Under the pieces are notes generated by a model, which was not told the origin of the DNA, did not search any database, and was given only the letters and a program-made list of their open reading frames with translations. Source: Gemmatimonas sp. (lineage in GTDB: Bacteria; Gemmatimonadota; Gemmatimonadetes; Gemmatimonadales; Gemmatimonadaceae). Taken from it: 64,000 bases of DNA. How positions within the stretch are numbered: the stretch's first letter is position 1; the number at the start of each line of letters is the position of its first letter. Shown here piece by piece: positions 3,649-23,871 of this stretch. Made by a program: the position numbers and the translations under genes. The stretch is taken from contig JANNVQ010000014.1 in the NCBI GenBank assembly GCA_031414535.1, positions 224,001 through 288,000 on the forward strand, in the 5' to 3' direction.

Positions 3649-3654
3649 CAGCGA

Positions 3655-4644
3655 CTAGCGCGCAACGATGTCGAGGGTGGAGCGCGGTCGGAGCGCCCAT
3701 ACACCAATCGAAAGTGGCACGAGCACGCCGATGGCATCGTAGCGGCGCCCCGTATCCCACACGCCCACAACGAACGGCGGACGGAACCCGGGGTCGGCCC
3801 GCCTATCCAACAGCATCACGAGATTGCCACTGCCGTCAGTGACGGTTACGCGAAGGCTGCCGAGCACTGTCTGCGTGTCCACCACCGCGACATTGACGAG
3901 ACGCACCAGAGCGGCATCGCGCGCGCCTCCTGCCGCAGTGGCGGCGGCGGCGCTGCTGAGGACGGGGGCTGCGGGCACATTGAGCGCGGTGCCGAGGGCG
4001 AAGACCGTGACGTCGTCGAGGACGCGTTGGCCGTCTCGTACGGCGATGCGACCCCTCAGACGCACGTGGTCGCCATTCGCGACGGTCGAGGGACGCACGC
4101 GTACGGCGCGAAGCGCCGCCGCAGTGTCCACCATATGGAGGAGCGTGTCGCTGTAGGTCGCCAGCGAGTGCAAGGCGACCCCGCGCACGAACACGCGCGC
4201 ACCGAGTGTCGCCAGGCGCGCTTGGGTCGTGGTCAGCACCGGGAACGACAGCAGCGCATCGGATTGCACCGAGTCGGATGGCAACAGCGTCACGTTGCGC
4301 TCAGGAAAACCGGCAGCGTCAATGGAATCGCCGAGGCTCGCCGCATCAACGACCAGCTTATAGCTGCCCACTGGCACCGACGAGAAGCGGAAGCGGCCCG
4401 TCGCCGACGTCGTGGCGCGTAAGACGGTATCTCGCGAAACCGGCGTCAGCAGACGCACGCGCACTCCTTCCATCGGCGAATCCGCCAGCCCCACATCGCT
4501 CGAACCGTCAGCGTCGAAGGTCACCGTACCGAACACCGTGCCCGTCGCGCTGATGCCCAAGCTGCGGCCGCCCTCGCCGCCACAGGCACCCGCAGCGACG
4601 AGCAGCGACGCCGCGAGGATCCGCGCATTGCGAATCATCGTCAT
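3655..4644 (-). CDS. Lipoprotein with an N-terminal SdrD-B/prealbumin-like domain and probable OB-fold repeats
   Basis: Lipobox AAGAC; GTVTFDADG...GVRVRL...TTSATGRFRFSSVPVGSYKL; ATGA overlap with the receptor stop codon. Confidence 0.7.
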   Translation of the reverse strand: MTMIRNARILAASLLVAAGACGGEGGRSLGISATGTVFGTVTFDADGSSDVGLADSPMEGVRVRLLTPVSRDTVLRATTSATGRFRFSSVPVGSYKLVVDAASLGDSIDAAGFPERNVTLLPSDSVQSDALLSFPVLTTTQARLATLGARVFVRGVALHSLATYSDTLLHMVDTAAALRAVRVRPSTVANGDHVRLRGRIAVRDGQRVLDDVTVFALGTALNVPAAPVLSSAAAATAAGGARDAALVRLVNVAVVDTQTVLGSLRVTVTDGSGNLVMLLDRRADPGFRPPFVVGVWDTGRRYDAIGVLVPLSIGVWALRPRSTLDIVAR

Positions 4645-7490
4645 CGCGTCACCCGCAGGCCCACGCGCCATAGCACGCCAGGTGCGCGGCCATCCACCTT
4701 CTCACCGAACCCAGGATTCACCACGTAGGGAAGCGTAGTCACGCCGGTACCGGGGTTCACCGTCACAGAGCCCGTCGCATCAACCAACAACAGCGCCGCA
4801 TCTACCGGTGCGGTGTTGACGGCGAGCAGGTCCACGGCGTCCAGCACCAGATCCACGCGCCTCCCACCGATGTTCGCCACGCGGAACGCGGCGCGAACAT
4901 CCACGCTCTGCGCAAGCTCGCCGCGGCAGGCATTGCGCGCGGCAAACACACCGGACTTCAAGCAAGAATACTTGGCCAGTTGGGCGTCCATCCCCGGCAA
5001 TGCCGCATCCACGAACGCCGCGTCGTTGGTCCAATCGCCGTCGCCGTTGGCATCAACACCGCCGCGGAAGCCAGGCGTGAATGGAAGCCCCGAGCGCAGG
5101 CGATACAGACCGCCAATGCTGAACCAATCACTCAGACGCCACTCCAGCGCGACCATGGCACGGTGGGGTACATCAAGATCACTGCGGCCATCCGCCCAAT
5201 CGCGGCCGGCCAAACCATCAGGGAACGACGACTGCACGCGCCCAAGCTGCGGGAGATTGTCGTTCGTTTGGCTGTGTGTGTAGAATGCCGACAAGCTCAG
5301 GCCCGTCTCGCGCACGCGCTCCACGCCCACCGTGAGGCCCCAGTACTCGCTGCGGCCATCGTTCTCGAGCAGGTTCACGGCATCGAAGTCGGCGAAGCGT
5401 CGGTTGGACTGCGGCGTGACGACGAGCGCCGTACCGACCTGCTGCAGACTGCCAAACAGCGGCCGACCATCTTGATCTTCACCCGCCGCGAAGGCCGGCA
5501 GGTTCAGGTCGCGGCGGCGGCTCAATCCATCGGTCACGCGATACACACCAGATACCGACGCCCTCCAGTATCCGAGCGCGCGCGTGAGACCGAGCGAGAG
5601 GCGCTCGGTGCGCGTGCCACCGAACTGCGGCGACAGCATCGTGAGCGTCTGGCCCACCACTGGGGCCTGGCTCAGGCTGGGCACGGCATCCGTCGGCAGC
5701 GTGCCCACGCCGTACCGCACGCGGGCCGCACGGTCCAGCGCGAGTGCCTCGGCCATATCGCGCACGTCGGGCAGATCGCGGAAGGTGCCAGCGCCGCCCT
5801 CAAGGACCCACGCGGCCTTCTCGCCGAGCTCCCAGCGGAAGCCCAAGCGCGGCGACACCGCAGAGGTCCGCGGCGACACATCGGTGTTGTCGAGCCCGCT
5901 GAGGGCCAACCACTCTGCGTTCTCCTCGATGCGCGACACTGGCACGCCAAAGCTTTCCATCCGCAGGCCCATCGTCAGCTCTAGGCCCGACGCGAGTTGC
6001 CAATCGTCCTGCAGGATGAACGCCGTCTCGCGCAGTCGCAGCACGGCCCCTGCATCGGCGCTCTCGACGCCGCGCCACGCGGCGTTGGCCACGGGCAGCA
6101 AGCTCGGCGCTGTGCCAAACACATACTGCCCGTCACTGTCGCGCACGTACTCGGATTCAGCCCGCTGCGAGGAGGCAAGCACGCCCATCTTCAGCCGGTG
6201 GCGGCCGGCATCCATGTGCAGCAGCGCCGTCAGTCTCGGCGTGGCGCGCAACTCGCGGTGTGGCGTGCCCAGCGCGCCACCAAAGCGGGCGATGTCCGTG
6301 GTTGCGTACTCGCGTGCAAAGCCGCCCGCGCTGCCCTCGGTCCGGTTCACGTCCATCCCAAAGCGCCACTCGGCGGCCACGCGGTTCGAGAGGCGCGCCA
6401 ACACGTTCACGCTGCCCTGCCCCGCGATGCCGCTGTAGTCCGATCCGTAGTAGGAGGGAAAACCTGCGCGCTCGCCGTACCCGGTTGAGGTAAAGCGTCC
6501 GCCGCTCGCCTGCAGGCCAATCGCCAAGCGCTCGCTGCCGCGCCAATCAATGCGTCCAAACGCCGAGGCACGCTCGTCGGCGCGAGAATCCACGTTTATC
6601 GATTCGCTCCAGAAGTCGCGCTCGTTGCGCTGATAGTCGAACCCGACGATGCCCTGCGCGGTGTCGCCTTGCAGCGGGCCAGAGAGCAGGTAGCTGCCGC
6701 CGAGCGCGGCGGTGCCGCCTTCCGCGCCGACGACACTGCCCACGCGGCTGCCTCCTTGACGCGTCGAGGCGCGCACACCGACGCCTGTACCGCCGAGCTC
6801 AACGTCATAGCCCATCCCACCGACCGAAGCGGACGAGACCGCGCGCAGGGGCAGCGCGAGCCCAGCAGCATCGGCACCGCTGCCGGCCTGAGCCGCCGCG
6901 CCAGACGAACGGGCGCCATCAACGAGCATCGAAGTCATCCGCCACGGCAAACCTTCCACGCCGTACGCATCCGCGCCCACCGAGAACGCCGCAACGTCAC
7001 CACCGATGCGACGGGCTCCAGGAAGGTCGGCGTAGCCACGATCAAGCAACCACTGCCCGGGAGCGATGATGGCGCCGCGTGCTACGACGGTGTCTACGGT
7101 ACTCACCGGCGGAGTGGCCGGACGCAGCGTTGCCGCCAGGCGGACGGCCGCGCCCGCGACGACGCGCACGTCCAAGTGCACCACCGGACGGAAACCCACT
7201 TCCTCGACGGTCACGTCGTAGCGGCCACTGGGCAAAGCGTCAAAACGAAAGCGCCCGTCGTGCGACGTCAGGGTCCACTGTGTCGCTCCACCCTGACGGG
7301 ACACCACGCGCACTTCGGCCTCACCTAACGGTCGGCCATCGAGCGCGCGCACCTGCCCCTCGAATCGTCCCACGGCAAGACTCTGCGCTGGCAGCGCGAG
7401 TGGCGCGAACCAGGGCAAAAGCGTGAGAGTGGCGAGCCTAAGGCCGCGCGCAAGAACGTTCAAAACCTGCGGATGCTCGGATGGCGACAC
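4641..7490 (-). CDS. Oar-like TonB-dependent outer-membrane receptor with N-terminal carboxypeptidase-regulatory-like domain
   Basis: Signal peptide; GQVRALDGRPL...TSHDGRFRFDALPSGRYDV; barrel motifs ILQDDWQL, VSPRLGFRW, SGLPFT. Confidence 0.85.
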   Translation of the reverse strand: MSPSEHPQVLNVLARGLRLATLTLLPWFAPLALPAQSLAVGRFEGQVRALDGRPLGEAEVRVVSRQGGATQWTLTSHDGRFRFDALPSGRYDVTVEEVGFRPVVHLDVRVVAGAAVRLAATLRPATPPVSTVDTVVARGAIIAPGQWLLDRGYADLPGARRIGGDVAAFSVGADAYGVEGLPWRMTSMLVDGARSSGAAAQAGSGADAAGLALPLRAVSSASVGGMGYDVELGGTGVGVRASTRQGGSRVGSVVGAEGGTAALGGSYLLSGPLQGDTAQGIVGFDYQRNERDFWSESINVDSRADERASAFGRIDWRGSERLAIGLQASGGRFTSTGYGERAGFPSYYGSDYSGIAGQGSVNVLARLSNRVAAEWRFGMDVNRTEGSAGGFAREYATTDIARFGGALGTPHRELRATPRLTALLHMDAGRHRLKMGVLASSQRAESEYVRDSDGQYVFGTAPSLLPVANAAWRGVESADAGAVLRLRETAFILQDDWQLASGLELTMGLRMESFGVPVSRIEENAEWLALSGLDNTDVSPRTSAVSPRLGFRWELGEKAAWVLEGGAGTFRDLPDVRDMAEALALDRAARVRYGVGTLPTDAVPSLSQAPVVGQTLTMLSPQFGGTRTERLSLGLTRALGYWRASVSGVYRVTDGLSRRRDLNLPAFAAGEDQDGRPLFGSLQQVGTALVVTPQSNRRFADFDAVNLLENDGRSEYWGLTVGVERVRETGLSLSAFYTHSQTNDNLPQLGRVQSSFPDGLAGRDWADGRSDLDVPHRAMVALEWRLSDWFSIGGLYRLRSGLPFTPGFRGGVDANGDGDWTNDAAFVDAALPGMDAQLAKYSCLKSGVFAARNACRGELAQSVDVRAAFRVANIGGRRVDLVLDAVDLLAVNTAPVDAALLLVDATGSVTVNPGTGVTTLPYVVNPGFGEKVDGRAPGVLWRVGLRVTR

Positions 7491-7626: not shown

Positions 7627-7926
7627 ATGCTCCCCCTTCCCTCCGCCACGGTGGTCTTCCAGCGCATTGATGACGGCGCCGTGCTCTTCGCGCCCGCCAC
7701 GGAGATCTACTTCGGCCTCAACGAAGTCGGCGCGCGCGTCTGGGAGTTGCTACCCCCCAAGAGCGACTCGCTCGACCAGCTTTGCGGCACGCTCGCTGCG
7801 GCGTACCCTGAGGTGCCCGCGACTGAGCTGAGGACAGACGTCGAGGAACTGCTCGCGCAACTCCTTCAGGAGGGACTCGTCACGCCGCCAAGCGGCGGGG
7901 CGTCTGATGGCCCGTCTGCGATCTAA
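7627..7926 (+). CDS. PqqD-family RiPP recognition element (lasso B1)
   Basis: YFGLNEVGARVWELL and DVEELLAQLLQEGLV; overlaps the B2 gene. Confidence 0.93.
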   Translation: MLPLPSATVVFQRIDDGAVLFAPATEIYFGLNEVGARVWELLPPKSDSLDQLCGTLAAAYPEVPATELRTDVEELLAQLLQEGLVTPPSGGASDGPSAI

Positions 7927-8356
7927 GATCGCGGACCGCCTCGCTGCACAGTTCGCGCTCCTGCGCGCCCGTCGGCTTCTGGCCACTGCGCCCATCGGCG
8001 CACTCACCACACGCCGAGTTGGAACGGCCCGAGTCGCAGACAGCGAGATTCAAGAGCCACCCCGCGCTGCACCTGAAGCGCAACTGCGCGCCGCGGCCTT
8101 GGGGGACGCGGTGCAATGGACCTCGACCCACGGACTGTTTCGTCCGTTTTGCCTCGTACAGGCGCTCGCACTGCAGGAACTCCTCTCCAAAGCGGGCATT
8201 CACGACAGTGAAATTCGCGTCGGGGTCCGGCGCGAGGGTAACTCGCTAAAAGCCCACGCTTGGGTGCGCTGGAACGGACAAGTCCTCGGCGACGACCCCA
8301 AGCACGTCAGCGAGTTCACCGAAGTGGACGACATTAGCGTCCTCGGTCTGCGATGA
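7907..8356 (+). CDS. Lasso peptide leader peptidase (B2, transglutaminase-like)
   Basis: Cys-His-Asp triad motifs CLVQALAL, AHAWV, LGDD. Confidence 0.92.
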   Translation: MARLRSKIADRLAAQFALLRARRLLATAPIGALTTRRVGTARVADSEIQEPPRAAPEAQLRAAALGDAVQWTSTHGLFRPFCLVQALALQELLSKAGIHDSEIRVGVRREGNSLKAHAWVRWNGQVLGDDPKHVSEFTEVDDISVLGLR

Positions 8357-8375: not shown

Positions 8376-10109
8376 ATGACCCGCATTTTCGTCCGTGCAG
8401 GCAGAGATACTCGGCCCGACGCTCCAGCAGACGCGGAGGCCTTGGGCTGGTGCGTGGTCGCAGACGCGACGCTGTACTACCAGACTGACTTGCGGTCGCG
8501 CATCGGCGGCACGGCAGGAAGTTCTGCCGAGCTCATCGCTCAAGCCATCGCGAAGGACTCACAACGTGCCCTCGACTGGCTCGAGGGTGATTTTGCGTTT
8601 GTCGCGTGGAAGCAAGACAGCGGCGAGATCATCGCCGCACGTGACTTCTCCGGCAAGCGTCCGCTCTTTTACGCCTCCGCGCCAGACGGTCTACTACTGG
8701 CAAGCGACGTCAGGGCACTACTCGCTGACCCAGCGGTCGACCGACGCATTGACCTCGCCCGGGTTGCCTCAGTGGCGGCCGGACTCTGGGCCCACGGTAG
8801 CGCCACGGGATACCAGGGTATTCACGAGCTCCCGGCCGGCTCCGTGTTGCGCTGGCGGCCCGGCAGCGCAGCGAGCATCACGCCGCACTGGAAGACACCC
8901 GAGCACATCGAAACGCGCCGCCAGCCACTCGACGAGGCCGCCGCAGAGCTGCGCGTCCTCCTCGATGCAGCTGTCCGCGAACGCCTCGCACCGAACGGGC
9001 GCACGGCAGTTTCGTTGAGCGGCGGATGGGACTCTACCGCCGTGTACGGAACCGCCAAAGCGCTCGGCGCGGACGTACACGGGGTAAGCGTCAGCTACCC
9101 TGAGGGCGATCCGGGCCGCGAAGACGAATTCATTCGCGAGGTCACGGCATTCTGGAAGACTTCGCCAGACTTTCTTGACGTTGACGACATCCCGCTCGCC
9201 AGTGATTGGAACGCTGAAGCCGTAGTGCGGCCGCTACCATTTGCACACGTGTATGAGCACTGGAACCGAGCCATCGCTACGCGTGCACGCGCCTCGGGAG
9301 CCACGGTTCTGCTCGACGGAGTCGGTGGCGACCAGCTGTTTCAGTGTGGCGACATCTTCCTCGCGGATTTGCTACGCGGCGGCCAATGGCTCGAGGCCGT
9401 ACATCAAGTGCGGCGACCAGACCGCACTCACGACTGGGCGCGTTTGAAGACTTGGGGCGTTGAGCCGCTGCTACCCGCGTGGTGGCGAGCACGGCGAGCG
9501 CGCCAGCAGAACCGCTTGTTCACTCAAGACTATCTCGAGCGCCTGCCGCCGCGATGGTTTCGGCACAGCTTTCTCCGCGAACATCAGCTCCTTGAACGTG
9601 AGCGCGCGGCACGGCCGCTGCGCCGCACGAGTTCTTTCGTGATGGCTGAAGCGCAGGCCTACATCGAGTTCGCGTACTTTCCCCGCGTGTTCGCGCTACT
9701 CAGCGGATTCGTGGCGGATGCCGGGCTAGAACTTCGCTCGCCCTTGCTCGATCAACGTCTGGTGCGGTTTGCGCTCCAGCGTCCGTGGAGCGACCGGGTG
9801 GATGGCGCTGAGACCAAGAACTTGCTCCGTCGCGCCATGCGCGGACGCCTGCCCGACAGCGTCCTCGCGCCGCGCCCACATCGCACTGGCACAACAAACG
9901 GCTATTTTCTACGCAGGCTTCGCGCGGACGCTTGGCCCGTGGCCCGCACACAGTTCAGTACGCTCCGCCTCGGCGAACTCGGGATCGTGGACCCACACGA
10001 ACTCGAGCGTGCGTGGCAGCACCTCCTCGAGCATGACGACGGCGAGCTCGCCGCACGGTTGTTCTTCACGTTCGCCACTGAACTCTGGCTTCGCTCACAT
10101 CATCCGTGA
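8376..10109 (+). CDS. Lasso cyclase (asparagine-synthetase-like C protein)
   Basis: GDFAFVAW, ARDFSGKRPLFY, ATP-binding SLSGGWDS, DGVGGDQLF, SPLLD; no N-terminal glutaminase Cys; adjacent to B1 and B2. Confidence 0.9.
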   Translation: MTRIFVRAGRDTRPDAPADAEALGWCVVADATLYYQTDLRSRIGGTAGSSAELIAQAIAKDSQRALDWLEGDFAFVAWKQDSGEIIAARDFSGKRPLFYASAPDGLLLASDVRALLADPAVDRRIDLARVASVAAGLWAHGSATGYQGIHELPAGSVLRWRPGSAASITPHWKTPEHIETRRQPLDEAAAELRVLLDAAVRERLAPNGRTAVSLSGGWDSTAVYGTAKALGADVHGVSVSYPEGDPGREDEFIREVTAFWKTSPDFLDVDDIPLASDWNAEAVVRPLPFAHVYEHWNRAIATRARASGATVLLDGVGGDQLFQCGDIFLADLLRGGQWLEAVHQVRRPDRTHDWARLKTWGVEPLLPAWWRARRARQQNRLFTQDYLERLPPRWFRHSFLREHQLLERERAARPLRRTSSFVMAEAQAYIEFAYFPRVFALLSGFVADAGLELRSPLLDQRLVRFALQRPWSDRVDGAETKNLLRRAMRGRLPDSVLAPRPHRTGTTNGYFLRRLRADAWPVARTQFSTLRLGELGIVDPHELERAWQHLLEHDDGELAARLFFTFATELWLRSHHP

Positions 10110-11041
10110 CCTCGCGTTATCTCGCCTTCGGCAGTCTGATGGAATCCGACATCGCCTTCCCCGACCTCGCGCTGGGTGGCGAGGGCGATGTACGCTGGCG
10201 AGTGTCGCACGTCGAGGCGCTCGCGCCGATGCACGAGCCGTGCGAACTTGGCCGCGAGACAATCTACGATGCCGTGGCCGCAACGCTCTACGCGCATCGT
10301 GACGGCCGTCGCATCGTGGTGGATGACACCGGCAGCTTCGACCTGCTGGCCGACGGCAGAATCCTCGTGGCTCCACTCGCCACGGCATCGGAAGCCTTCA
10401 TCAGGGCGCACATCCTTGGCCGCGTCCTTGCCACGGCTCTGCACACAGATGGCTGGTTGCCCTTGCACGCGAGCGCCGTGCTCACACGCGAGGGCGTGGT
10501 AGCGTTTCTTGGACCCAAGGGGATGGGAAAGTCCTCCTTGGCCGCGGCGATGGTCGAGGCAGGCGCACAGCTTGTCACGGATGACACGCTGCCCTGCCAA
10601 GCCAGCACGCCCCCCCGCGCTTGGCCAGGCATTCAGGCCTTGCGTGTACGAGACGATGTGCGCGAGGCCCTCCACCTACAGAACGGTAATCCGCTCGACG
10701 TCGACGCCCGACGCTTTTTGGTGTCGCTGGGCGCCGAGCGCCGCTCCCATAAGCCTGAGCCGCTGGCTGCTTTGTTTTTACTTGCGCCCGCCGAAGATGA
10801 ATTGCGTGCAGAGGCCGCCGTGCGCACGCCATTCGCACCCGTGCTTGGCGCGGCCGCCATCACCGCGCACGTGAAGTCCGGCGCAATGTTCGGCCCTGCC
10901 GCCGCTCCCGCGATGCTCGCACGCGCCGCGCAGATGGTGCACCTCGTGCCGGTGAATCAACTGTCCATCGTGCGCGACCTCGCGCGACTTCCCCAAGTCG
11001 CACAGACGGTCCTCGATTGGTACGGGGGTCCGCCGCGGTGA
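10106..11041 (+). CDS. HprK-related kinase (lasso peptide kinase-like), copy 1
   Basis: LHASAV, Walker A GPKGMGKS, TDD; GTGA overlap with the cyclase. Confidence 0.85.
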   Translation: MTSRYLAFGSLMESDIAFPDLALGGEGDVRWRVSHVEALAPMHEPCELGRETIYDAVAATLYAHRDGRRIVVDDTGSFDLLADGRILVAPLATASEAFIRAHILGRVLATALHTDGWLPLHASAVLTREGVVAFLGPKGMGKSSLAAAMVEAGAQLVTDDTLPCQASTPPRAWPGIQALRVRDDVREALHLQNGNPLDVDARRFLVSLGAERRSHKPEPLAALFLLAPAEDELRAEAAVRTPFAPVLGAAAITAHVKSGAMFGPAAAPAMLARAAQMVHLVPVNQLSIVRDLARLPQVAQTVLDWYGGPPR

Positions 11042-11925
11042 TTGTCCAAGTGGACGGCATCGGCAAATCTTTTGCCGTGACGCCAGGCTGGGCCGCGCTC
11101 GTGCGAGCGCGAGCGGAGCCACGCCGTGTACTCGATGCGGTCAGCTTCTCCGTGAAGGAAGGCGAGATCTTCGGCTTGCTCGGCCCCAATGGCGCCGGCA
11201 AAACCACACTGTTCAAGATTCTCGCAACCTTGTTGGCTTCGGACGAAGGTGAGGCGCACATCGGTGGCTTCTCGGTGAGCGACGACGCGGCAAGTGCGCG
11301 AGCCTTGATTGCGCCGGTGCTGGCGAATGAGCGCTCGCTCTACTGGCGATTGTCCGCGTACGAGAACCTGCGGCTGTACGCCGTGCTCCAAGGTTTGGCG
11401 GCGCATCAGGTGGATGCGGAGATCACGCGCGTGCTCGCGGCCACTGGGCTCAGCGATACCCCGCCTGCAATGGTTGGCACTTTTTCGTCGGGCATGCGCC
11501 AGCGACTGCTTATTGCGCGCGCGCTCCTAGGACGTCCACGCGTGTTGTTACTCGACGAACCCACGCGTAGTCTCGACCCCATCTCGGCGCGCGACTTCCG
11601 TCGCTTCCTCCGTGATTCAGTAGTCCGCGCGGAAGGCTGCACAGTACTGCTCGCCACGCACGATGCCGGTGATGCCTGGGAGCTGTGCGATCGCGTGGCC
11701 GTGCTGCATCGCGGTCAACTCCTCGCCGTTGATGAGACCACCAAGCTGCGCGCGCGATTCGGCGGGCCCCAGCATGCCTTGATTGTGAACTCCGCGGAGA
11801 GAGATCACGCTCGAGCACTCTTAGAAGCCGGCGGAGTGAGCGTCATGCAGGAAGCCCCGCACGCCGCATCGCTGGCCGAACTCATTGAGCGGGCCATCGC
11901 CGATGCAGGGGCTCCGCATGCGTAA
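11038..11925 (+). CDS. ABC transporter ATP-binding protein
   Basis: GPNGAGKTT, FSSGMRQ, LLLDEP and ATH motifs. Confidence 0.95.
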   Translation: MIVQVDGIGKSFAVTPGWAALVRARAEPRRVLDAVSFSVKEGEIFGLLGPNGAGKTTLFKILATLLASDEGEAHIGGFSVSDDAASARALIAPVLANERSLYWRLSAYENLRLYAVLQGLAAHQVDAEITRVLAATGLSDTPPAMVGTFSSGMRQRLLIARALLGRPRVLLLDEPTRSLDPISARDFRRFLRDSVVRAEGCTVLLATHDAGDAWELCDRVAVLHRGQLLAVDETTKLRARFGGPQHALIVNSAERDHARALLEAGGVSVMQEAPHAASLAELIERAIADAGAPHA

Positions 11926-12718
11926 AGCGCTCGCCCTCGCACGTGTTGGCTGGTTGAGTGCCACGAGTTATCGCGTGGCCACGTTGCTGCAGTTCGTGGG
12001 AGTACTCGCTACCATCGTGCCGGTGTATTTCGTCTCGCAAGCCATGCAGGAATTGGCTGCCTCGAGCATCCAACGAGAGGGTGGTGCGTACTTCGCGTTC
12101 ATCGTGGTCGGCATCGCGAGTACCTACATCGTCGCTGCGGCGACCACCGCCGTGTCGAGCGCGATTGCATCCAACCTCGGCTCCGGTACCTTCGAGGCCT
12201 TGCTTGGCACCCGCGCTTCTATCGTGTCTATCCTGTTTGGACTCTCGCTCCACGACTTGGCGATGTCGGCATTGCGTGCCCTCGCCTTGTTGGTAGGAGC
12301 AGCCGCGTTCGGCGCCGACATCCATTGGTTGGCACTGGTGAGCGTCCTACCAATCGTGGCGCTGGTAGTAGTTGCGTATGCTGGTGTCGGATTGGTAGCG
12401 GGGGCGCTGGTCCTCGCGTTCCGCACCGCCGGTCCGCTCGTCAGCATTACCATTGCACTCTCGGGATTGCTGGGCGGTGCGTACTACTCCACGACCGTCG
12501 TACCTGGCTGGCTGCATCCACTGACGGAGTTCGTACCGCTGACGCACGGACTGCGCGCCACGCGCGCCGTGTTGCTTGGTGGCGAAGGTCTCGCGACCAC
12601 CTGGCCAGATGTTCTGCGCTTGGCGAGTAACGCTCTGTTGCTCGTGACTGCGGGTGTGATTGCCTTCGCATTCGCCCTGCGTCGTGCGCGCGGCAACGGC
12701 TCGCTCTCTCAGTACTGA
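11918..12718 (+). CDS. ABC-2 type exporter permease
   Basis: About six hydrophobic segments; GTFEALL and PLTHGLRATR. Confidence 0.9.
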   Translation: MRKALALARVGWLSATSYRVATLLQFVGVLATIVPVYFVSQAMQELAASSIQREGGAYFAFIVVGIASTYIVAAATTAVSSAIASNLGSGTFEALLGTRASIVSILFGLSLHDLAMSALRALALLVGAAAFGADIHWLALVSVLPIVALVVVAYAGVGLVAGALVLAFRTAGPLVSITIALSGLLGGAYYSTTVVPGWLHPLTEFVPLTHGLRATRAVLLGGEGLATTWPDVLRLASNALLLVTAGVIAFAFALRRARGNGSLSQY

Positions 12719-13902
12719 TGAGCACGCTTTCGCCGTCGCCCGAGCTACGCTTCGTTTTCCGCGCCGCCGATCCTCGCTGCGAAGCGCAGGAGCTGCTCGG
12801 CATCGCCGCGCAGATTCAGGATTGGCAGCGAGTCGCGCGCTTGGCAGAATCGGAAGGTGCGACGGCCGTGCTCTGGCGTATGCTGCGGCCAGTTGCCGCA
12901 CAACTGCCCGCGGAGTTCGTGATTTTCCTGCAGGCACGCACGATGCTCGCGGATTTTCGCATGCAGCGCCTCGCGCAGCGCGCGCAGGAAACCGTGGCTG
13001 CGCTTCGGGCTGCCGGCATTGACGTGCTGCTCCTCAAGGGAGCCGCCGTAGGCGCGCTTTGCGACCCCACGTTTCGTCTGCGACCGATGACGGACGTTGA
13101 TTTGTTGATTGCCGAAGCGGACGCGGAGCGAGCCAAGGCCTGCGTGCTGGGTTTGGATTGGATGGAAATGCCGGAGCCGCGTCTGCGCGAGCTGTTAGTG
13201 GGGCATCAACATCTGCCGCCGTTTGTGGATCCCACGCTCGAGGGCCTGCGGCTCGAACTGCACACGCGTCTACTGCCAGCGGATAGTTCGTTTGCATTGG
13301 TGGCGTCTGATCTCTGGCAACACGCGAACCTGGCACCGCCGCAGTTTGCCGGCGCAAAGGTCCCGGATCTCGCAAGGCTGGCCGTGCACACCGCCGTGCA
13401 TTTCGCATGGCAACACGAGATGCGCTTCGGTCCCTGGCGAACGTTTCGCTCGTTTGCCCTGCTCACGCAGCACGAGAGCTGGGATTGGCAGGCCTTCGTT
13501 GCGATTGGCCGCGACGCGCGGGCCAGCACCTCCTGCTACTGGACGCTGCGGATGGCTCGTACACTCAGTGGTGTCGACGTCCCCCGCGCGGTGTTGGCAG
13601 CGCTCGCGGCACCATCGCCTGAGTTTGTGCGTCGCATCTTGGACCGCCACTTCACGGCCGTCTCCGATCCGCTCGAGCGTCCGCCGTCACCGTCGGATCG
13701 TCTGGCAAGGCTGTTGTGGCGCATGGCCCTGCGCCCGCGATGGAGCGGACACCGCACGGTGAGTCGGTTCGATCCCGAACGACGTTGGGAGCGTGCGTTC
13801 AGTGAGACGGCTGAGCCGGCGAGCATGTCGCGCGTCAGGCGCCACGTCGGAGTTCGTGGAGACTGGTGGGCTTTTCTCACGCGTACGATTGCGGGGCGAT
13901 AG
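12718..13902 (+). CDS. Nucleotidyltransferase family protein (NTP_transf_5-like, lasso-cluster type)
   Basis: LLKGAA...RPMTDVDLL and LELH motifs. Confidence 0.85.
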   Translation: MSTLSPSPELRFVFRAADPRCEAQELLGIAAQIQDWQRVARLAESEGATAVLWRMLRPVAAQLPAEFVIFLQARTMLADFRMQRLAQRAQETVAALRAAGIDVLLLKGAAVGALCDPTFRLRPMTDVDLLIAEADAERAKACVLGLDWMEMPEPRLRELLVGHQHLPPFVDPTLEGLRLELHTRLLPADSSFALVASDLWQHANLAPPQFAGAKVPDLARLAVHTAVHFAWQHEMRFGPWRTFRSFALLTQHESWDWQAFVAIGRDARASTSCYWTLRMARTLSGVDVPRAVLAALAAPSPEFVRRILDRHFTAVSDPLERPPSPSDRLARLLWRMALRPRWSGHRTVSRFDPERRWERAFSETAEPASMSRVRRHVGVRGDWWAFLTRTIAGR

Positions 13903-13913
13903 CGGCGCGAACT

Positions 13914-16262
13914 TTACGGACGGTCTACAAGACGTTCGAGTCGCTCAAGACGTGCCTTCAGGTCGTTCACTTCCGAGCGCAGTGTAGCGTTCTCGGCCTT
14001 CAAGGCATCAGAACGCAGAATGAGTTGCTGGACGGCAAAGAGATTGATGCCGTCAATGTCCACGAGCGTGATGGTGCGATCGCTGGTGCCGAGTCCGAAC
14101 GCCGCGCGAAAGTCCTGCGCGGTAGGTCCGACGTGACGCACGCTCGCGTTTTCCGTGGTGTAGCTCCACTCCTCGATTGGCATCGTGCGGATGCTTGAGA
14201 GCACCTGCTCGCCGTCGAGTGCAGTGAAGCTCTGCTTGCGATTGCGGTCGGAGAGGGAGGTCCATGAGCCGCTGCCTGGCGTGAGTTCGACACCGCTCGT
14301 CATGGCGCTGTTGGAATAGAGCGTATAGCCACCAGCTGCGCGCACGACGAACTGATTGTCTGCAGCGGCCGTCACGTTGGTGGTGGTCGAGTTGTCGCCG
14401 AAGACCAGTGCACCCTCTCGTCCGTTTGTTGAAGCCGCTGATCCGAGGGCGACGGATTGAATGCCGCTCGCGATTACATCCACGCCGATGGCCACCGCGC
14501 CAAGAGCAGATGCCTGAGGACCGAGCCCGATTGCGACGGATCCGACACCGGATGACTGGGAGGAGTTGCCGAGGGCGATGCTGCCGGTGTTAGATGCGGT
14601 GGTGAGGTATCCCACGGAGAAGGCAGCCAGTCCGCTCGCGACCGTAGTGCTTCCCATCGCAATCGAGTTTTCTCCGGTGGCCTGCGTTGAGAAGCCGAGC
14701 GAAACTGCCGACGCGGCCGTGGCGCGAGCGAGACTGCCAATCGCGAGGCTCGCCTCGCCACTGGCTAGCGTGTTGTTGCCGAACGCGGTGGAGTAGAGGC
14801 CGATGTTGGCATCGTTCCACTCGCTTAGAGTTCCAGCGTTATCGAGGCGTCCAGCGCGAATCGAGGCCTTGCGCGGATACCACAGGAAGCGCGAGCCCGT
14901 ACCAGCCGGCGCCAAATCGCCTGAGTTGATCGCGCCGCCCGTGGCCAAAATCGGGTTCGTGCCGATGGTGAGGCCGAGCGCTGAAATACGACCGGCCGCG
15001 AACGCACCATCCGCATCACGCTGCACGATTGCATCCGCGGTGTTCAGCGCCGTACCTGAGGCGTTTGTGCCGGCGGGCCCTTGTGGGCCGACGTCTCCCT
15101 GGAGTCCCTGAATTCCCTGAATCCCTTGAATTCCCTGCGGGCCAGCAGGGCCGGTTTCGCCCGTGGCTCCGGAATCACCTTGAACACCTTGAAGGCCCTG
15201 AAGGCCCTGCGGTCCCTGAGGACCTGCAGGGCCGGTGGCACCCGCTGCACCTGCAGGACCAGCGTCTCCTTGGATTCCTTGTGGGCCCTGAGGGCCGGTG
15301 GCACCGGTCAGGCCTTGAAGACCCTGAGCGCCCTGCGGGCCGGCTGGGCCCGTCGCGCCCGCGGCTCCGGAATCGCCTTGAACCCCCTGTAGGCCCTGTA
15401 GTCCTTGCGGACCCACAGGACCTGCCGGCCCTGTGGCACCTACGGCACCAGCAGGACCAGCATCTCCTTGGGCACCTTGTGGGCCCTGAGGGCCGGTAGC
15501 ACCGGTCAGGCCTTGAAGACCCTGAGCGCCCTGCGGGCCAGTCGCACCGGCAGCGCCAGCGGGACCAGCGTCGCCTTGAAGACCCTGAAGACCCTGGGGA
15601 CCAATAGCGCCAGCCGGCCCAGTCAGACCCTGCGGCCCGGCAGGACCAACCGCGCCGGCAGCTCCAGCTGGACCAACATCCCCTTGAAGACCCTGGAGAC
15701 CCTGCGGTCCCTGCGGGCCAGCGGCACCAGTCGCGCCGGCCGTGCCCGTGGGTCCGGTTAAACCCTGCGGCCCGGCAGGGCCAGCAGGACCAACTTCACC
15801 CTGCAATCCCTGCGCACCCGGAACGCCTGGAACACCCTGCGGTCCCTGCGGTCCCTGAGGTCCCTGAGGTCCAATCGCGCCCGCCGCGCCAGCCACACCC
15901 GCTGCACCAGCCACACCCTGCGGACCCGTTGCACCCTGCGCACCAGCCGGACCCTGCGGCCCCACCGGACCCTCAGACGTCCACGTAAACAGCACGTGCG
16001 TCGTCGCCACACAAGTCGTCGGCAGCCCCGCCGCGCCGACTCGATACACCGTGCCCGTCGTCGGCACGAAACACGCACGCAGAGTATCCGCCACGATCAA
16101 GGCGCCGGAGAACGCTGCACCGGCTCCTGCCATCGCAAACGAGGAGGAGGCGCTCAGGGAAACACCGAGCACCGCGGCAATTCCAAGCGCCGTGCCACGA
16201 AAGGTTGTGCGAAGTCGAGTAGACAACTGAAAGCTTCCTGCGAAAAGGGAGTTGAGCGACAT
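13914..16262 (-). CDS. Secreted collagen-like fibre protein with YadA-like head repeats and C-terminal peptidase S74 intramolecular chaperone domain
   Basis: Hydrophobic N-terminus; two-Cys cap; 101 Gly-X-Y triplets; 14-residue ASGxxSxAxG repeats; SDRNRK...HVGPTAQDF...coiled coil. Confidence 0.9.
15063..15971 (-). repeat. Uninterrupted collagen repeat, 101 Gly-X-Y triplets (909 bp)
   Basis: Counted from GPV to GTN; 909 nt = 303 aa. Confidence 0.95.
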
Positions 16263-16296: not shown

Positions 16297-16689
16297 TCAG
16301 CCGTTCACAATCCAGGTCCGAGCGAACTGCAACGTGAGACGGAGCACTTCTACTTCGGGCGCCTTATCCGCGCTCGCGCCGCCAGCCAAAGTGTTGAAGG
16401 CCTGCACAGTCGCATTGAATGCCGTGCACGCAGCGGCGCGATCTGCCACGGCTACCGCCGACTCAAGCGCCGCGAGTTGGACGTCCACTGCGGGCGGCGC
16501 GGCCAGCGTCGGGAGCACACGGTCGCGCGCATCCTCTAACGCCGGACGTAGCGCCGCAGCGTTCGTGACCGTGTGCTGGAGAGGGGTGCCCAGTGCGAGA
16601 GCCGTACAATCAATTTGCGGCTCCGTTGGCGCTTCCGTACAGGCGGCGAGCCCGGCAAGCAACGCGAGGCCGAGCAGTCGACTTTTCAC
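16297..16689 (-). CDS. Small helical lipoprotein upstream of the collagen fibre gene
   Basis: [17 protein letters not shown] lipobox; GTG start; two further Cys residues. Confidence 0.75.
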
Positions 16690-17057: not shown

Positions 17058-17234
17058 ATGTATCAGAAGCCCCAGCTCCAGAAGTTCGGTACCTTCCGCG
17101 AGCTCACACTCCTCGGTCTCAATAGCTCCACCGATGGCGCCGTCATTTTCGGCATCGGATCCCCAGGTTGCTCCACCACCATCGGGAAATGGACTTGGGA
17201 AATTGGCTGCCCTTCCGGGCCGCGCTCCTCCTGA
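17058..17234 (+). CDS. Lasso peptide precursor (58 aa)
   Basis: Leader YQKPQL (YxxPxL) and GxxxELT; Asp at core position 7/8; RBS AGAGGA; own terminator. Confidence 0.9.
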   Translation: MYQKPQLQKFGTFRELTLLGLNSSTDGAVIFGIGSPGCSTTIGKWTWEIGCPSGPRSS

Positions 17235-17272: not shown

Positions 17273-17311
17273 ACGAGCCCCGAGCCTCTCGCTCCGGGCT
17301 CGTTTTTCTTT
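17273..17311 (+). terminator. Intrinsic terminator after the precursor gene
   Basis: ACGAGCCCCGAGC / GCTCCGGGCTCGT stem (one mismatch) followed by TTTTCTTT. Confidence 0.8.
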
Positions 17312-17373: not shown

Positions 17374-18303
17374 ATGCCGCTCTACTCGGCCTACGGCACA
17401 CGGCTCGAATCTGCCATCGAGTTTCCAGAGCTACCGCTCGCCAGCCGCGGACCGGCACGTTGGCGCTTCCGCATTGACGCCGAGCTTCCGGCAATGCGGG
17501 ATCCCGAAGAGCGCGGGTCGGAACTCATCCACGGCGACGTCTACGCGAGACTCTTCGCGCACCGCCGTGGCCTGCGTGTCTGCGTGGACGACACCGGCGA
17601 CTTCGATATCGCGCCCAACGGCAACATCGTCGCTACCACGCGCCCAGACGCGTGGGACGACTTCGTCCGGAATCATCTATTGGGCCGCGTCCTCGCCGTC
17701 GCGATGTTCGAAGCCGGCTGGCTACCGCTGCACGCGTCCGCCGTCGATACACCCGAGGGCGTCATCGCGCTCCTCGGACCCAACTCCGTAGGAAAATCTG
17801 CGCTCGCGATTGCACTCACTAATGCCGGCGCCACGCCAGTCGCTGACGATACGCTTCCCGTGGAATCGGGCACGCCACCCTGCGCTTGGCCGGGGTTACC
17901 CAACGTCCGCATTCGTGAAGACGTACGGGCTGCCCTAGACTTGCCCCGCAGCGGACTAGACACGCACGAAGGCAAGACCATCCTCGCGCCGGCGCCTAAT
18001 CACCATCCGAGCATGTCGCCTCGCCCGCTTGCTGGCATCTATTTGCTCGCGCCCAACGAGAACCTCGCGCGTAAAGCCGCCGTGGTGCGCACGCCCTTCG
18101 CACCCGTGCTCGCAGCACCGGCCATCGTTGCGCACGTTCGCGCCGGCGCGATGCTCGGCCGCGGCGCAGTCGCCACCATACTCCAGAGAGTGTCGCCAGT
18201 CGTGAGTATGGTGCCCGTGCACCAACTCTCGGTCTCCCGCGATCTGTCGCGGCTGGAGGACGCCGCCCGAGAGATCATGAGTTGGTACGCGGTCACCACC
18301 TAG
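17374..18303 (+). CDS. HprK-related kinase, copy 2 (paralog of 10106-11041)
   Basis: LHASAV, GPNSVGKS, ADD; shares VRTPFAPVL, DDTG and HQL/NQL blocks with copy 1. Confidence 0.85.
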   Translation: MPLYSAYGTRLESAIEFPELPLASRGPARWRFRIDAELPAMRDPEERGSELIHGDVYARLFAHRRGLRVCVDDTGDFDIAPNGNIVATTRPDAWDDFVRNHLLGRVLAVAMFEAGWLPLHASAVDTPEGVIALLGPNSVGKSALAIALTNAGATPVADDTLPVESGTPPCAWPGLPNVRIREDVRAALDLPRSGLDTHEGKTILAPAPNHHPSMSPRPLAGIYLLAPNENLARKAAVVRTPFAPVLAAPAIVAHVRAGAMLGRGAVATILQRVSPVVSMVPVHQLSVSRDLSRLEDAAREIMSWYAVTT

Positions 18304-20446: not shown

Positions 20447-20489
20447 GCGCGGGGGACAGGCCAAGTGTCTGTCCCCCGTGCTATTTTTT
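20447..20489 (+). terminator. Intrinsic terminator
   Basis: GCGCGGGGGACAGGC / GTCTGTCCCCCGTGC stem followed by TATTTTTT. Confidence 0.85.
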
Positions 20490-20493
20490 GCCG

Positions 20494-22173
20494 ATGCCAG
20501 CCATTGGACCCGCGTTGACCCCTGCTGAAGCATCCCAACGTCTGCGCGAAATGGCGGAGCGCTGGGCTGCCAATATCGATGCCACCGAGCGCGGAGCGTT
20601 TCAGCCGTGGTTCATCGAACTGTGCGAGGCGCTCGGCGTACCCAAGCCTTCCCAGACCTCAGACTATCAGTTCGAGCTCCCCGTGCGCGTGGTGGACCGC
20701 GAGGGTGAACTCGCCACGAACTTCATTGATGCTTGGCACACGGGGCACTTTGCGATGGAAGCGAAAATGTCCGAGCCGGGGCGGCAGAACGATGCGCTGC
20801 TCCGCAAGGCATTCGGCCAGGTGCGCACCTACGTCTCGCACGTTCCCGGTACGCCGCCGCCGTATTTGATGGTGGTGGACGTGCCGCGCACGCTCATCGT
20901 CTGGGACAAGTGGTCGGGCAGCTACGGTGACTTCGGCGCAGGGCGCCGCATCGCCCTCAGCAGCCTGCACGAGCGTGCAGACGACATCGCGCTCTTGCAG
21001 GACATCTTCGCTCGGCCCGAGGCTCGCGACCCGCGCGGGAGGGCTCAGGCGGTGACGAAGGAGATTGCTTCGCGGCTCGCCGCGCTTTCCGCGGCGCTGG
21101 AAGGTCGTGGATTAGACCAGGAGCGCGTCGCGCGCTTCCTGATGCGCTGCGTGTTCTCCTGTTTTGCTGAAGATGTTGGACTTCTGCCTGAACAGTTGTT
21201 CCGCAAGACGCTTGAGGCCGCGCGCAGTTCCGGCGATGCCACACGCCTCAAGGCCGCGCTCGAGCTACTGTGGAAGACAATGGACGAGGGCGGAATGTTT
21301 GGCGCAGAGATGCTGCATCGGTTCAATGGACATTTTTTCAAGACGCGTGAGGCACTGCCGCTTGAGCCTGCCGATGTCGCGCTGCTGATCGAGGCTACGT
21401 CATATGATTGGTCTCGTGTAGAGCCGAGCATTTTTGGCACGCTGCTCGTGCGCGCGCTCGACCCAGCCGAGCGGCACAGGCTGGGCGCCGAGTACACGCC
21501 GCGCGAGTACATCGAGCGACTCGTTGAGCCAACTGTGGTGGAGCCCATCCGCGAGCGCTGGGTGGCGGTGCAGGCCAGCGTCGTGCAACTCGAGGAGAGC
21601 GGCAAGAAGAAGGACACTGAGGCCGCCGTGAAGGCGCTGCTCGAGTTTCGCGGCTGGATGCGGACGCTGCGCTTTCTCGACCCCGCCTGTGGCAGCGGCA
21701 ACTTTTTGTATGTGACGATGGCGGCGGTGAAGCGCATCGAGCACGAAGTGTTGAACGAGTTGCAGCGCTTGAGTGGGGGCCAGGGTGGACTCGTGCTCGA
21801 CGAGGTGCATCCGCGGCAGTTCTTCGGCATCGAGATTAAGCCTTGGGCGCGCGAGATTGCTGAGCTCACGCTGTGGATCGGGTATCACCAGTTCTGGCGC
21901 GAGACGCACGGCGGGCGCACGCCACCGGATCCGATTCTTGAGGATACCGGCACGATTGAGTGCCGGGATGCGATTCTCGCGTATGATGAGATTGTGCATC
22001 GGCCGGAGAAGGACCGGCCGGATCCGACGCCGCGGATTGTGCATCCGGTGACGGGAGAGTTGGTGCCGGATCCTTCGGCGAAGTTGCCGTACTATGAGTA
22101 TGTGAATGCGCGGCCGGCGGAGTGGCCCGAGGCGGATTTTATTGTGGGGAATCCGCCGTACTTGGGGTCCTAG
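20494..22173 (+). CDS. MmeI-like type IIG restriction-modification enzyme, N-terminal part (nuclease, helical region and MTase up to NPPY); ends at an in-frame TAG
   Basis: FID...EAK nuclease motif; FNGHFF; GAEYTP; FLDPACGSGNFL; GNPPY followed by TAG. Confidence 0.85.
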   Translation: MPAIGPALTPAEASQRLREMAERWAANIDATERGAFQPWFIELCEALGVPKPSQTSDYQFELPVRVVDREGELATNFIDAWHTGHFAMEAKMSEPGRQNDALLRKAFGQVRTYVSHVPGTPPPYLMVVDVPRTLIVWDKWSGSYGDFGAGRRIALSSLHERADDIALLQDIFARPEARDPRGRAQAVTKEIASRLAALSAALEGRGLDQERVARFLMRCVFSCFAEDVGLLPEQLFRKTLEAARSSGDATRLKAALELLWKTMDEGGMFGAEMLHRFNGHFFKTREALPLEPADVALLIEATSYDWSRVEPSIFGTLLVRALDPAERHRLGAEYTPREYIERLVEPTVVEPIRERWVAVQASVVQLEESGKKKDTEAAVKALLEFRGWMRTLRFLDPACGSGNFLYVTMAAVKRIEHEVLNELQRLSGGQGGLVLDEVHPRQFFGIEIKPWAREIAELTLWIGYHQFWRETHGGRTPPDPILEDTGTIECRDAILAYDEIVHRPEKDRPDPTPRIVHPVTGELVPDPSAKLPYYEYVNARPAEWPEADFIVGNPPYLGS

Positions 22174-22176
22174 CGG

Positions 22177-23871
22177 ATGCGGGGCGCCTTAGGCGACGGG
22201 TACGTTGAGTCACTGCGCTCGGCTTGGTCGCCGCTGCCTGCTGCTCTCGATCTCGTCTCTTACTGGTGGCATCGGGCCGCGTCTTGTGTGGCGGCGGGCA
22301 GGACTATTCGTGCGGGACTCATCACAACGAACTCGATTACCCAAGGGCATAATCGAACGGTCATTGCCAGTGCTCGCAAGGATGGTGCGGGAGTTGTTTG
22401 GGCGGCAAAGAATCATCCATGGTCAGACGCTGCCGACTCCGCCGCGGTCGCAGTGAGCATGACTGTCGTTTCGAAAGAGAATTTGCCTCCGCGGCTTGTT
22501 TTTGTCAGTGATACCACAAGCACACCTGTTTCGAGAGTTGTCACGCATGTCAATGACGACCTGACGGCAGGAGCAGACGTGGCGGCGGCTGTTCGTGTGC
22601 GGCTACGCTCCAATGAAGGACTCACGGCTTTTGGGTTCGCCCTCCACGGCGATGGATTCTTGCTGCGTAGAGATGAGGCCGATCTGCTGCTTGCTCGCTC
22701 GGCGCAAGAAAGAGCGGTTGTAAAGCCTTACCGAGGCGGCCGCGACCTTACAGATCGCGCTCGAGACCTCTTCGTAATCGACTTTGGTTACATGACTGAG
22801 GACGAGGCACGGCGCTTCCCGCTCGCATTCCAGCGCGTCGCGGACCTTGTCAAGCCGGAGCGAGATGCGAACGCGCGCCAGTCCATCCGGGAGTTCTGGT
22901 GGAGGTTTGGGTGGCCACGTCGTGAACTTCGAGACGCACTACTGGGCATCAGCACTTACATCGCAACTACCGAGACCGCGAAGCACCGAACGTTCTCCAT
23001 GATCGATGCAGCCGTCGCACCGGATCATATGGTGGTTTCGATTGCGACCGACAGCCACTTCGTTCTGGGAATCCTGTCGTCCGAAGCTCACCGCACTTGG
23101 TCGTTGGCCGTAGGCGGCACGCTCGAGGATCGTCCACGCTACAACAAGTCCCTCTGCTTCGACCCCTTCCCATTCCCCGACCCCGCTCCGGCCCTCCGCA
23201 CCAAGATCGCCGAAGTAGCCAATCACCTCGACACCCACCGAAAAGCCGCCCTCGCCCGCGACGAACGCGTCACGATGACCGGCATGTACAACGTCGTCGA
23301 GAAACTCCGTAGCGACGAAGCGCTCACGACTAAAGAACGCGCCATCCACGAGATCGCCGCCTGCGGCATCCTCCGCGATCTCCACGACGAGCTCGACAAG
23401 CTCGTCGCCGAGGCCTACGGCTGGCCCTGGCCCATGGAGCGCGAAGAGATCCTCGAGCGCCTCGTCGCCCTTCACGACGAACGAGTCGAAGAAGAAAAGC
23501 GCGGCATCATCCGCTGGCTTCGCCCCGAATATCAGATTCCGCGCTTCGCGCCTGAGCAGGCCGAGGCCATCCTCGCGCTCGACGAGTCGGAGAAGCCCGC
23601 CAAGAAGCGCAGCAAGAAGTCGAAGGCCGCGGATTCTTCGGATGAAGCGCCAAAGCCGACCGCCACGCCCTGGCCGGCCACCGCTGTTGAGCAGATTTCC
23701 GCGATCAGTGCCCTCATCGCGCAGCAGTCACGCTCGGCGGCCGAGGTCGCGGCGGCGTTCGCAGGGGCACGGACTGAGCTCGTGACGCGACACCTCGACA
23801 CGCTGGCGCTCATGGGCGAGGTCACCCTTGGACCCGACGCGCGGTATCAGGCCTCGAGAAAGGCCGCGTAG
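22177..23871 (+). CDS. MmeI-like type IIG enzyme, C-terminal part (MTase C-half, target-recognition domain, C-terminal domain); same frame as the N-part
   Basis: DLVSYWW, GLITTNSITQG, VKPERDAN, TETAKHR, RYNKSLCFDPFPFP, LDKLVAEAYGW. Confidence 0.85.
   Translation: MRGALGDGYVESLRSAWSPLPAALDLVSYWWHRAASCVAAGRTIRAGLITTNSITQGHNRTVIASARKDGAGVVWAAKNHPWSDAADSAAVAVSMTVVSKENLPPRLVFVSDTTSTPVSRVVTHVNDDLTAGADVAAAVRVRLRSNEGLTAFGFALHGDGFLLRRDEADLLLARSAQERAVVKPYRGGRDLTDRARDLFVIDFGYMTEDEARRFPLAFQRVADLVKPERDANARQSIREFWWRFGWPRRELRDALLGISTYIATTETAKHRTFSMIDAAVAPDHMVVSIATDSHFVLGILSSEAHRTWSLAVGGTLEDRPRYNKSLCFDPFPFPDPAPALRTKIAEVANHLDTHRKAALARDERVTMTGMYNVVEKLRSDEALTTKERAIHEIAACGILRDLHDELDKLVAEAYGWPWPMEREEILERLVALHDERVEEEKRGIIRWLRPEYQIPRFAPEQAEAILALDESEKPAKKRSKKSKAADSSDEAPKPTATPWPATAVEQISAISALIAQQSRSAAEVAAAFAGARTELVTRHLDTLALMGEVTLGPDARYQASRKAA

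Follow-up and report, generated by a model that had tools for sequence, protein, structure and literature searches.

Characterized lasso peptides have cores of 13–33 amino acids, the longest described being pandonodin (2026 review PMC13352647; bioRxiv 2023.06.21.545946). Pandonodin is a class IV lasso of 33 amino acids with an 18-residue tail (PDB 6Q1X; PMC13352647, PMC9266682), and no kinase is given where PMC9266682 lists class IV clusters. For paeninodin (pade), a kinase acts on the linear precursor, at its terminal Ser, and requires His, Lys and Asp-Asp residues (PMC9266682), and for pseudomycoidin (psm, Bacillus pseudomycoides) the presence of a hexose on the phosphate requires an NTP-transferase-like gene (PMC6993621).

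The locus examined here lies in a 64,000-nucleotide stretch of a Gemmatimonas sp. contig (the window, to which coordinates without a locus label refer). Like pandonodin, its predicted product has a long core with a single disulfide wholly after the ring, and its cluster contains no disulfide enzyme. It differs in its core of 40 amino acids, in having 12 inter-Cys residues with a hairpin pattern, where the pandonodin tail is described as flexible, in its kinase and nucleotidyltransferase genes, where the pandonodin cluster has A–D only, and in the lack of any PDB sequence match for the precursor. With the pseudomycoidin (PMC6993621) and paeninodin (PMC9266682) systems, as these sources present them, it shares split B1/B2 proteins, a terminal Ser, an ABC exporter, an HprK-family kinase with His, Lys and Asp-Asp, and an NTP-transferase gene with a DxD motif. 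Those products are class II lassos of about 2.6 kDa that start with Ala1, whereas a 4-kDa product with Leu1 and a tail disulfide is predicted here; the Gemmatimonas locus also has two kinases, its ABC-2 pump is encoded by two genes, its precursor is displaced, and it belongs to a Gram-negative phylum. Precedent for a Leu1 start and an eight-residue ring comes from the citrulassins (Leu1–Asp8, e.g. citrulassin N; PMC12971885) and leepeptin (Leu1–Glu8; PMC6856326), although the likeness is one of ring chemistry only, these being described as actinobacterial peptides of 15–18 amino acids with no Cys pair.

Each ingredient has precedent; the combination and the size are new relative to the literature searched, in which a tail disulfide was not found together with terminal phosphorylation or glycosylation. 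The precursors themselves appear undescribed there, with lasso-cluster counts alone given for Gemmatimonadota (29 MAGs, PMC11316326), and the RODEO and LassoPred supplementary tables may list them.

The precursor gene and its biosynthetic cluster

The open reading frame at 17058..17234 (+) encodes 58 amino acids plus a stop, exactly matching the translation given in the initial annotation, and a purine-rich AGAGGA ends 5 nt before its ATG. Its 18-residue leader (17058..17111, +) carries a YxxPxL motif and a Thr at −2, and the Tyr, Pro and Thr are invariant in all 21 proteins, query included, returned by a protein search at E ≤ 1e-6. One of these, from a Gemmatimonadaceae bacterium, was already labelled a lasso-leader protein in one source database. 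When proteins from this search and a profile search were pooled, 168 of 168 fitted the leader pattern with Thr at −2. The precursor scored 26.7 bits against the NCBIfam lasso-leader model NF033521 (cut-off 19); a Pfam search gave no match, and a PDB sequence search found no relative at E ≤ 0.001, the MS-271 precursor chain being a weak match at E 0.07. An ESM Atlas query returned three unnamed clusters at 0.91–0.92, and Foldseek with a low-confidence model gave nothing usable.

Comparison with 12 related genes gave uncorrected pN and pS values of 0.26 and 0.64 for the whole precursor, and of 0.33 and 0.63 for the segment from Cys20 to the end. As pN is well below pS in both, the precursor is under selection as a protein, and so is its tail. 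Open reading frames overlap it on the opposite strand and in other frames, and the codon-level selection fits the precursor frame. Judged from its sequence, 17058–17234 is a real gene for a lasso precursor, in agreement with its first reading as such, and it is the only precursor of this type in a genome that holds a lasso enzyme set.

This enzyme set lies upstream on the same strand, 3–9 kb from the precursor, in the order B1-B2-C-kinase-ABC-nucleotidyltransferase. B1 (7627..7926) is a RiPP recognition element of the PqqD family (PF05402, E 5e-18) and the sole PqqD match in the genome. The B2 leader peptidase (7907..8356) scores above the NF033537 cut-off and contains Cys82 and His117. The lasso cyclase C (8376..10109) has an asparagine-synthetase fold (PF00733) with an SGGWDS ATP loop and without an N-terminal Cys; its top NCBIfam match is NF033535, yet under that model's curated cut-off. 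These are followed by the HprK-like kinase K1 (10106..11041; weak matches to PF07475, TIGR04355 and TIGR04352, all below cut-off), the ATPase and permease of an ABC-2-type exporter (11017..12718; PF00005, PF01061), and a nucleotidyltransferase of the NTP_transf_5 family (12718..13902; PF14907, E 4e-29; DxD at 126–128), which is PsmN-like by family name and DxD motif rather than by alignment to PsmN. Domain and NCBIfam searches of the cluster revealed no isopeptidase-like or other peptidase gene.

The precursor sits 3.2 kb beyond the end of this cluster, behind two opposite-strand genes, and is followed by a second HprK-like kinase, K2 (17374..18303, +), a paralogue 49% identical to K1. The His, Lys and Asp-Asp motif residues are present in both. 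A terminator-like stem-loop lies between precursor and K2 (17281..17302, +), one being found against a mean of 0.9 in shuffled sequence, which taken alone is not above chance. The genome is 98.4% complete and contains one NF033521 match and one PqqD/RRE match, so the precursor is the only evident substrate of the cluster. No second precursor was found near B1, where the interval from the beta-barrel gene to B1 was read in all three forward frames, or genome-wide.

This arrangement was compared with related loci. Among the 12 closest, the precursor lies directly before B1 in 10, one contig ends too soon, and in the remaining one, L001, it is displaced as here. None of the 50 loci with a strong kinase match has two kinase copies. 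A tree built from 23 kinases, K1 and K2 together with 21 chosen locus rows, shows K1 and K2 as weakly supported sisters (82/76) inside a well-supported group of four. The simplest reading of the displaced precursor and the two kinases would be a local duplication followed by gene loss.

The two genes beside the displaced precursor encode a collagen-repeat/YadA-head/S74-chaperone protein (13914–16262, −) and a small lipoprotein-like protein of no known family (16297–16689, −), for which an ESM Atlas search gave nothing useful; homologues of both (46% and 66%) surround the L001 precursor. A polysaccharide locus of about 60 kb abuts the lasso cluster (L081–L083, G000:C14:165001-225000, and window positions 2797–7490) and comprises glycosyltransferases, Wzy, a flippase, NeuB, amidotransferases, a PKS/NRPS-like block with a luciferase-like domain, and an XrtA-system deacetylase. 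Here and in 7 of 80 loci, a gene for a beta-barrel outer-membrane protein is oriented divergently from B1. Further downstream, two consecutive open reading frames (20488–23871, +) resemble the halves of a type IIG restriction-methylase, split at about 22173–22177, with CGSGNF and NPPY motifs read by eye.

The precursor family in Gemmatimonadota

A genome scan gave 113 related stretches, of which 80 were kept, 79 labelled Gemmatimonadota and one Thermomicrobiales, and a profile search at E ≤ 0.001 gave 303 representatives, 150 of which were listed and used. Precursor matches were found in 14 of 61 genomes of relatives and, besides the source genome, in 11 of 36 of the same genus. Cores from the protein search, the genome scan, the relatives' genomes and the listed profile matches were pooled to give 245 distinct cores, a length filter having dropped one core of 124 residues and one of 3. 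In this pool, for which the query's relatives supplied the search profile, so that matching columns are somewhat favoured, and whose rows are not independent because of kinship, Gly2 is found in 240 cores, Asp8 in 227, and Asp or Glu at positions 7–9 in 241. The median length is 38 amino acids, with 184 cores longer than 33 and 88 of 40 or more. From these comparisons, the precursor is a member of a large Gemmatimonadota family of long lasso cores, in which its length is normal. The earlier description of it as well beyond typical lasso cores is correct against characterized lassos and does not apply within the family. At its predicted 40 residues, the product would exceed in length every lasso peptide in the reviews checked.

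All seven enzyme and export genes are present in 32 of the 80 loci. Among the 55 loci with a cyclase, 49 have a kinase and 41 both a kinase and the nucleotidyltransferase. No lasso enzyme was seen in 22 of the 80 loci, for which flanks were at most 10 kb and many contigs short. Stand-alone precursors with no lasso enzyme nearby include L064:10004-10168, which lies between a DcuC-family transporter gene and a YegS/DAGK gene, and those of L016, L023, L032, L035, L046, L059–L061, L072, L075, L076 and L079, where the layout of open reading frames is similar. A copy that is linked to a cluster and differs slightly in its core is present as well in several of these genomes, which suggests that the stand-alone precursors are processed in trans.

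In another subfamily the lasso cluster comes right after rpoC or rpsG (L013, L021, L029, L037, L058), and fusA lies downstream of it in L013, L037 and L062, the cluster apparently being inserted in the rpoBC-str region. The placement may reflect an insertion site, or it may hint at an RNA polymerase or ribosome target. Lasso isopeptidases belong to family S9, and an S9-family peptidase gene adjoins the lasso cluster in L029 (4239–6575, −), a single occurrence.

The cores also differ in their Cys content. Three Cys are found in 52 of the 245, 49 of them with a Cys at position 13, a probable plug site; such cores occur in many loci (L013–L079), and their last residue is often Gly, Thr, Ala or Val. 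Their odd Cys may serve in a dimer, a metal site or another modification. Of the 158 two-Cys cores, 25 carry one Cys at positions 1–8 (class III-like), and Cys is absent from 31 of the 245 (class II-like). One leader family thus seems, from these sequences, to span three lasso classes. In short cores of 16–23 amino acids, the N-terminal part and the last Ser are kept and the Cys module is absent.

Predicted ring, plug and disulfide-closed segment

Numbered from Leu1 (17112), the core comprises 40 residues and includes Asp8, Cys20, Cys33 and Ser39-Ser40. All 21 close homologues retain Thr at −2, Gly2, Asp8 and Gly9. This Thr is followed by Gln, Leu, Arg or Lys and then, at position 1, by a hydrophobic residue in 80%, mostly Val, Leu, Ile, Trp or Phe, after which comes a near-invariant Gly. 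Because of the variable residue after Thr, the hydrophobic position 1 and the invariant Thr, Gly2 and Asp8, cleavage after Thr-Leu and closure of a Leu1–Asp8 macrolactam (17112..17135, +), as first proposed, are favoured and can be predicted with high confidence. A Gly1–Asp7 ring was rejected, as a Gly1 start would shift the invariant Thr to −3. The computed monoisotopic mass with the predicted lactam and disulfide is about 3974.89 Da, with 79.97 to be added per phosphate; that of the Gly1-ring form would be about 3861.81 Da.

For the threading, the columns that follow the ring are informative. Of the 227 cores with Asp8, 91% have a hydrophobic residue at position 12 and 180 have a Gly at position 14, both at a fixed distance from Asp8. 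By comparison, in a hairpin subfamily of 44 cores, chosen by the motif before the first Cys, between 1 and 16 residues follow the last Cys, and a large residue is found there in 7 of 44. As the former columns are fixed relative to Asp8 and the latter stretch is variable, the loop is predicted to be short, with Ile12/Phe13 as the plug, within Gly9–Gly14 (17136..17153, +), which would place both Cys below the ring, the class IV topology defined in PMC9266682. The threaded tail would then be about 27–28 residues; the 32 residues originally counted as tail are loop plus tail, the core length of 40 being correct.

The precursor has exactly two Cys, none in the ring, and two Cys are likewise found in all 21 close homologues, so that the pair noted in the initial annotation is conserved after the ring. 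In the 245-core pool, single-Cys cores number 3 against 67 expected by composition, and two-Cys cores 158 against 66. This depletion and enrichment point to Cys pairing, with the 52 three-Cys cores going beyond pairing alone. For the proposed class IV-like topology, the position of both Cys outside the ring was confirmed, and a disulfide below the ring is favoured by Cys parity and the predicted plug position.

The segment from Cys20 to Cys33 (17169..17210, +) was then considered as a disulfide-closed beta-hairpin. The inter-Cys loop in the 44 subfamily cores is 12 residues in 31, 8 in 6, 16 in 1, and 9, 13 or 15 in 6; lengths of 8, 12 and 16 are expected when a disulfide spans a hairpin with a two-residue turn. 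Among the 31 twelve-residue loops, Thr22 is found in 30 and Thr28 in 29, positions 24, 29 and 31 are hydrophobic in 30, 31 and 30, respectively, and Gly is at 25 or 26 in 28, which together give an alternating, two-faced pattern. Two AlphaFold models place strands at core residues 22–24/27–29 and 21–24/27–30, with low mean pLDDT (54 and 55; 67 over residues 21–30 in the second) and a turn at Gly25-Lys26 that is one residue off the register placing both Cys face to face. For residues 1–9 pLDDT is under 50 in the second model. AlphaFold is unable to model lasso topology. Based on the sequence pattern, the loop sizes and these two low-confidence models, a folded hairpin between Cys20 and Cys33, as had been suggested, is moderately probable. 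In the wider family there is no common fold, and the Cys are spaced by anything between 3 and 35 residues.

The hairpin had also been termed trpzip-like, on the basis of a five-residue stretch that presumably resembles the designed sequence. This part of the proposal does not hold. Trp27 and Trp29 occur together in 2 of the 31 twelve-residue loops, those of the precursor and its 98% twin, and 12 of the 31 have no Trp at all. A tryptophan zipper is described as a designed beta-hairpin resting on cross-strand aromatic pairs (PMC12291216). Both Trp of the precursor are C-terminal to the turn, so no cross-strand Trp/Trp pair would form, and mimicry was rejected; a Trp at 22/24 facing one at 27/29 is found in 1 of 31 relatives, not in the present precursor. 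What the two share is a probable short beta-hairpin with a hydrophobic face, the precursor hairpin differing in that it would be held by a disulfide and by Thr, Ile and aromatic pairs. Across the aligned loops, the trpzip likeness is incidental and strain-specific.

The last residue, Ser40 (17229..17231, +), is the predicted phosphorylation site, with precedent in PMC9266682 and PMC6993621. A terminal Ser is present in 21 of 21 close homologues, 44 of 44 hairpin-subfamily cores and 181 of the 245 pooled, and in 17 of the 52 three-Cys cores, though many of their loci still carry a kinase. The initial annotation had spoken of kinase-target serines. The last Ser as a probable target is supported by its conservation and by the presence of K1 and K2, both with the His, Lys and Asp-Asp residues; the plural is not supported, and Ser-Ser as a double target was rejected, this ending occurring in 4 of 44 subfamily cores.

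Proposed maturation, alternatives and meaning

Taken together, the best reading of the locus would be a pandonodin-like class IV lasso with terminal phosphorylation of the paeninodin/pseudomycoidin type, perhaps sugar-capped. As a whole, a 40-residue Leu1–Asp8 lasso with a Cys20–Cys33 hairpin tail and a phosphorylated, perhaps sugar-capped last Ser is the explanation we favour, with reasonable though not high confidence. Several points weigh against it: the kinase and cyclase matches stay below curated cut-offs, the precursor is displaced from the cluster, a terminal Ser is not shared by all family cores, the AlphaFold models are of low confidence, and host carboxypeptidases are reported to truncate lasso tails (PMC13352647). 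As the same gene pair is present in the cluster, the same kinase and transferase chemistry can be proposed. By analogy with paeninodin and pseudomycoidin, K1 and/or K2 would likely phosphorylate Ser40 on the linear precursor. The nucleotidyltransferase may then place a hexose or a nucleotide on this phosphate, a step modelled on PsmN for which the chances seem nearly even. The leader would very probably be bound by B1 and cut by B2 after Thr-Leu, and C would likely join Leu1 to Asp8 around the chain near Ile12-Phe13-Gly14, given the predicted short loop. With closure around the chain, the tail need not thread a finished ring. Export by the ABC-2 pump, with the disulfide forming without a dedicated enzyme, seems quite probable.

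A lasso with a giant loop would have the ring near the C-terminus, the disulfide hairpin inside a loop of about 25 residues and a phospho-sugar on Ser40 as the lock; a disulfide wholly in the loop would fall outside classes I–IV. Large loops do exist, with 20 amino acids in achromonodin-1 (bioRxiv 2023.06.21.545946), a phospho-hexose lock was proposed by the pseudomycoidin authors (PMC6993621), and the terminal Ser is fixed throughout the 44 subfamily members. Yet just 1–4 residues follow the last Cys in 4 of these 44, with up to 16 in others, no conserved plug is found near the end whereas the hydrophobic residue 12 and Gly14 keep a constant distance from Asp8, and the 16–23-residue cores retain the N-terminal part and the last Ser without the Cys module, making this topology distinctly improbable. 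It is also rather improbable that the product is a lasso of ordinary length, its tail trimmed after knotting, or that the Cys segment is an unstructured disulfide loop without a hairpin. Selection on the Cys20-to-end segment and the strict alternation within it speak against both, since a disposable tail needs neither, and the searches of the cluster revealed no peptidase gene, isopeptidase-like or other; on the other side stand the variable Cys spacing of the wider family, the low model confidence, the tail truncation by host carboxypeptidases that is reported as common in expression (PMC13352647), and the flexibility described for the long pandonodin tail (bioRxiv 2023.06.21.545946).

Very improbable, in our view, is a non-threaded product, a branched-cyclic phosphorylated peptide that would act as carrier or primer for the adjacent surface-polysaccharide pathway. 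ABC-2 pumps also export glycans, the cluster borders the long polysaccharide locus, and the same upstream deacetylase and beta-barrel genes are found in 7–8 of the 80 loci. Most other loci have no polysaccharide neighbours, however, the six examined adjoining rpoC/rpsG or fusA, and the locus has the canonical lasso leader, ring size and B/C set; a universal tie to exopolysaccharide genes is unsupported outside near relatives. For the class IV lasso preferred here, a surface-glycan role is likewise a minority view, because polysaccharide neighbours are present here and in a few near relatives and absent in others. Since the knot is conserved across the family and the Cys module exchanged or absent, we tentatively propose, as the likeliest role, that the lasso is exported to bind some target, the conserved knot providing stability and the variable hairpin a recognition face.

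A more far-reaching and unlikely reading is that the knot serves in Gemmatimonadota as the constant handle of a natural display library, composed of a 14-residue knot, an exchangeable disulfide-closed module and a terminal phospho-sugar. The beta-hairpin module would grow or shrink by whole strand pairs, and the phospho-sugar would tag or tether the peptide at the cell surface. If true, this would mean a two-domain knotted miniprotein and a cyclase naturally tolerating tails of 25–40 residues.

If made at full length, the product would stretch the range of characterized lasso cores, given as 13–33 amino acids in PMC13352647, to 40 and beyond, and would combine a tail disulfide with terminal phosphorylation or glycosylation. 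A cyclase that knots a constant N-terminus bearing very different tails would be useful for grafting and display, and the family would offer many natural substrates for asking what PsmN-like enzymes do.
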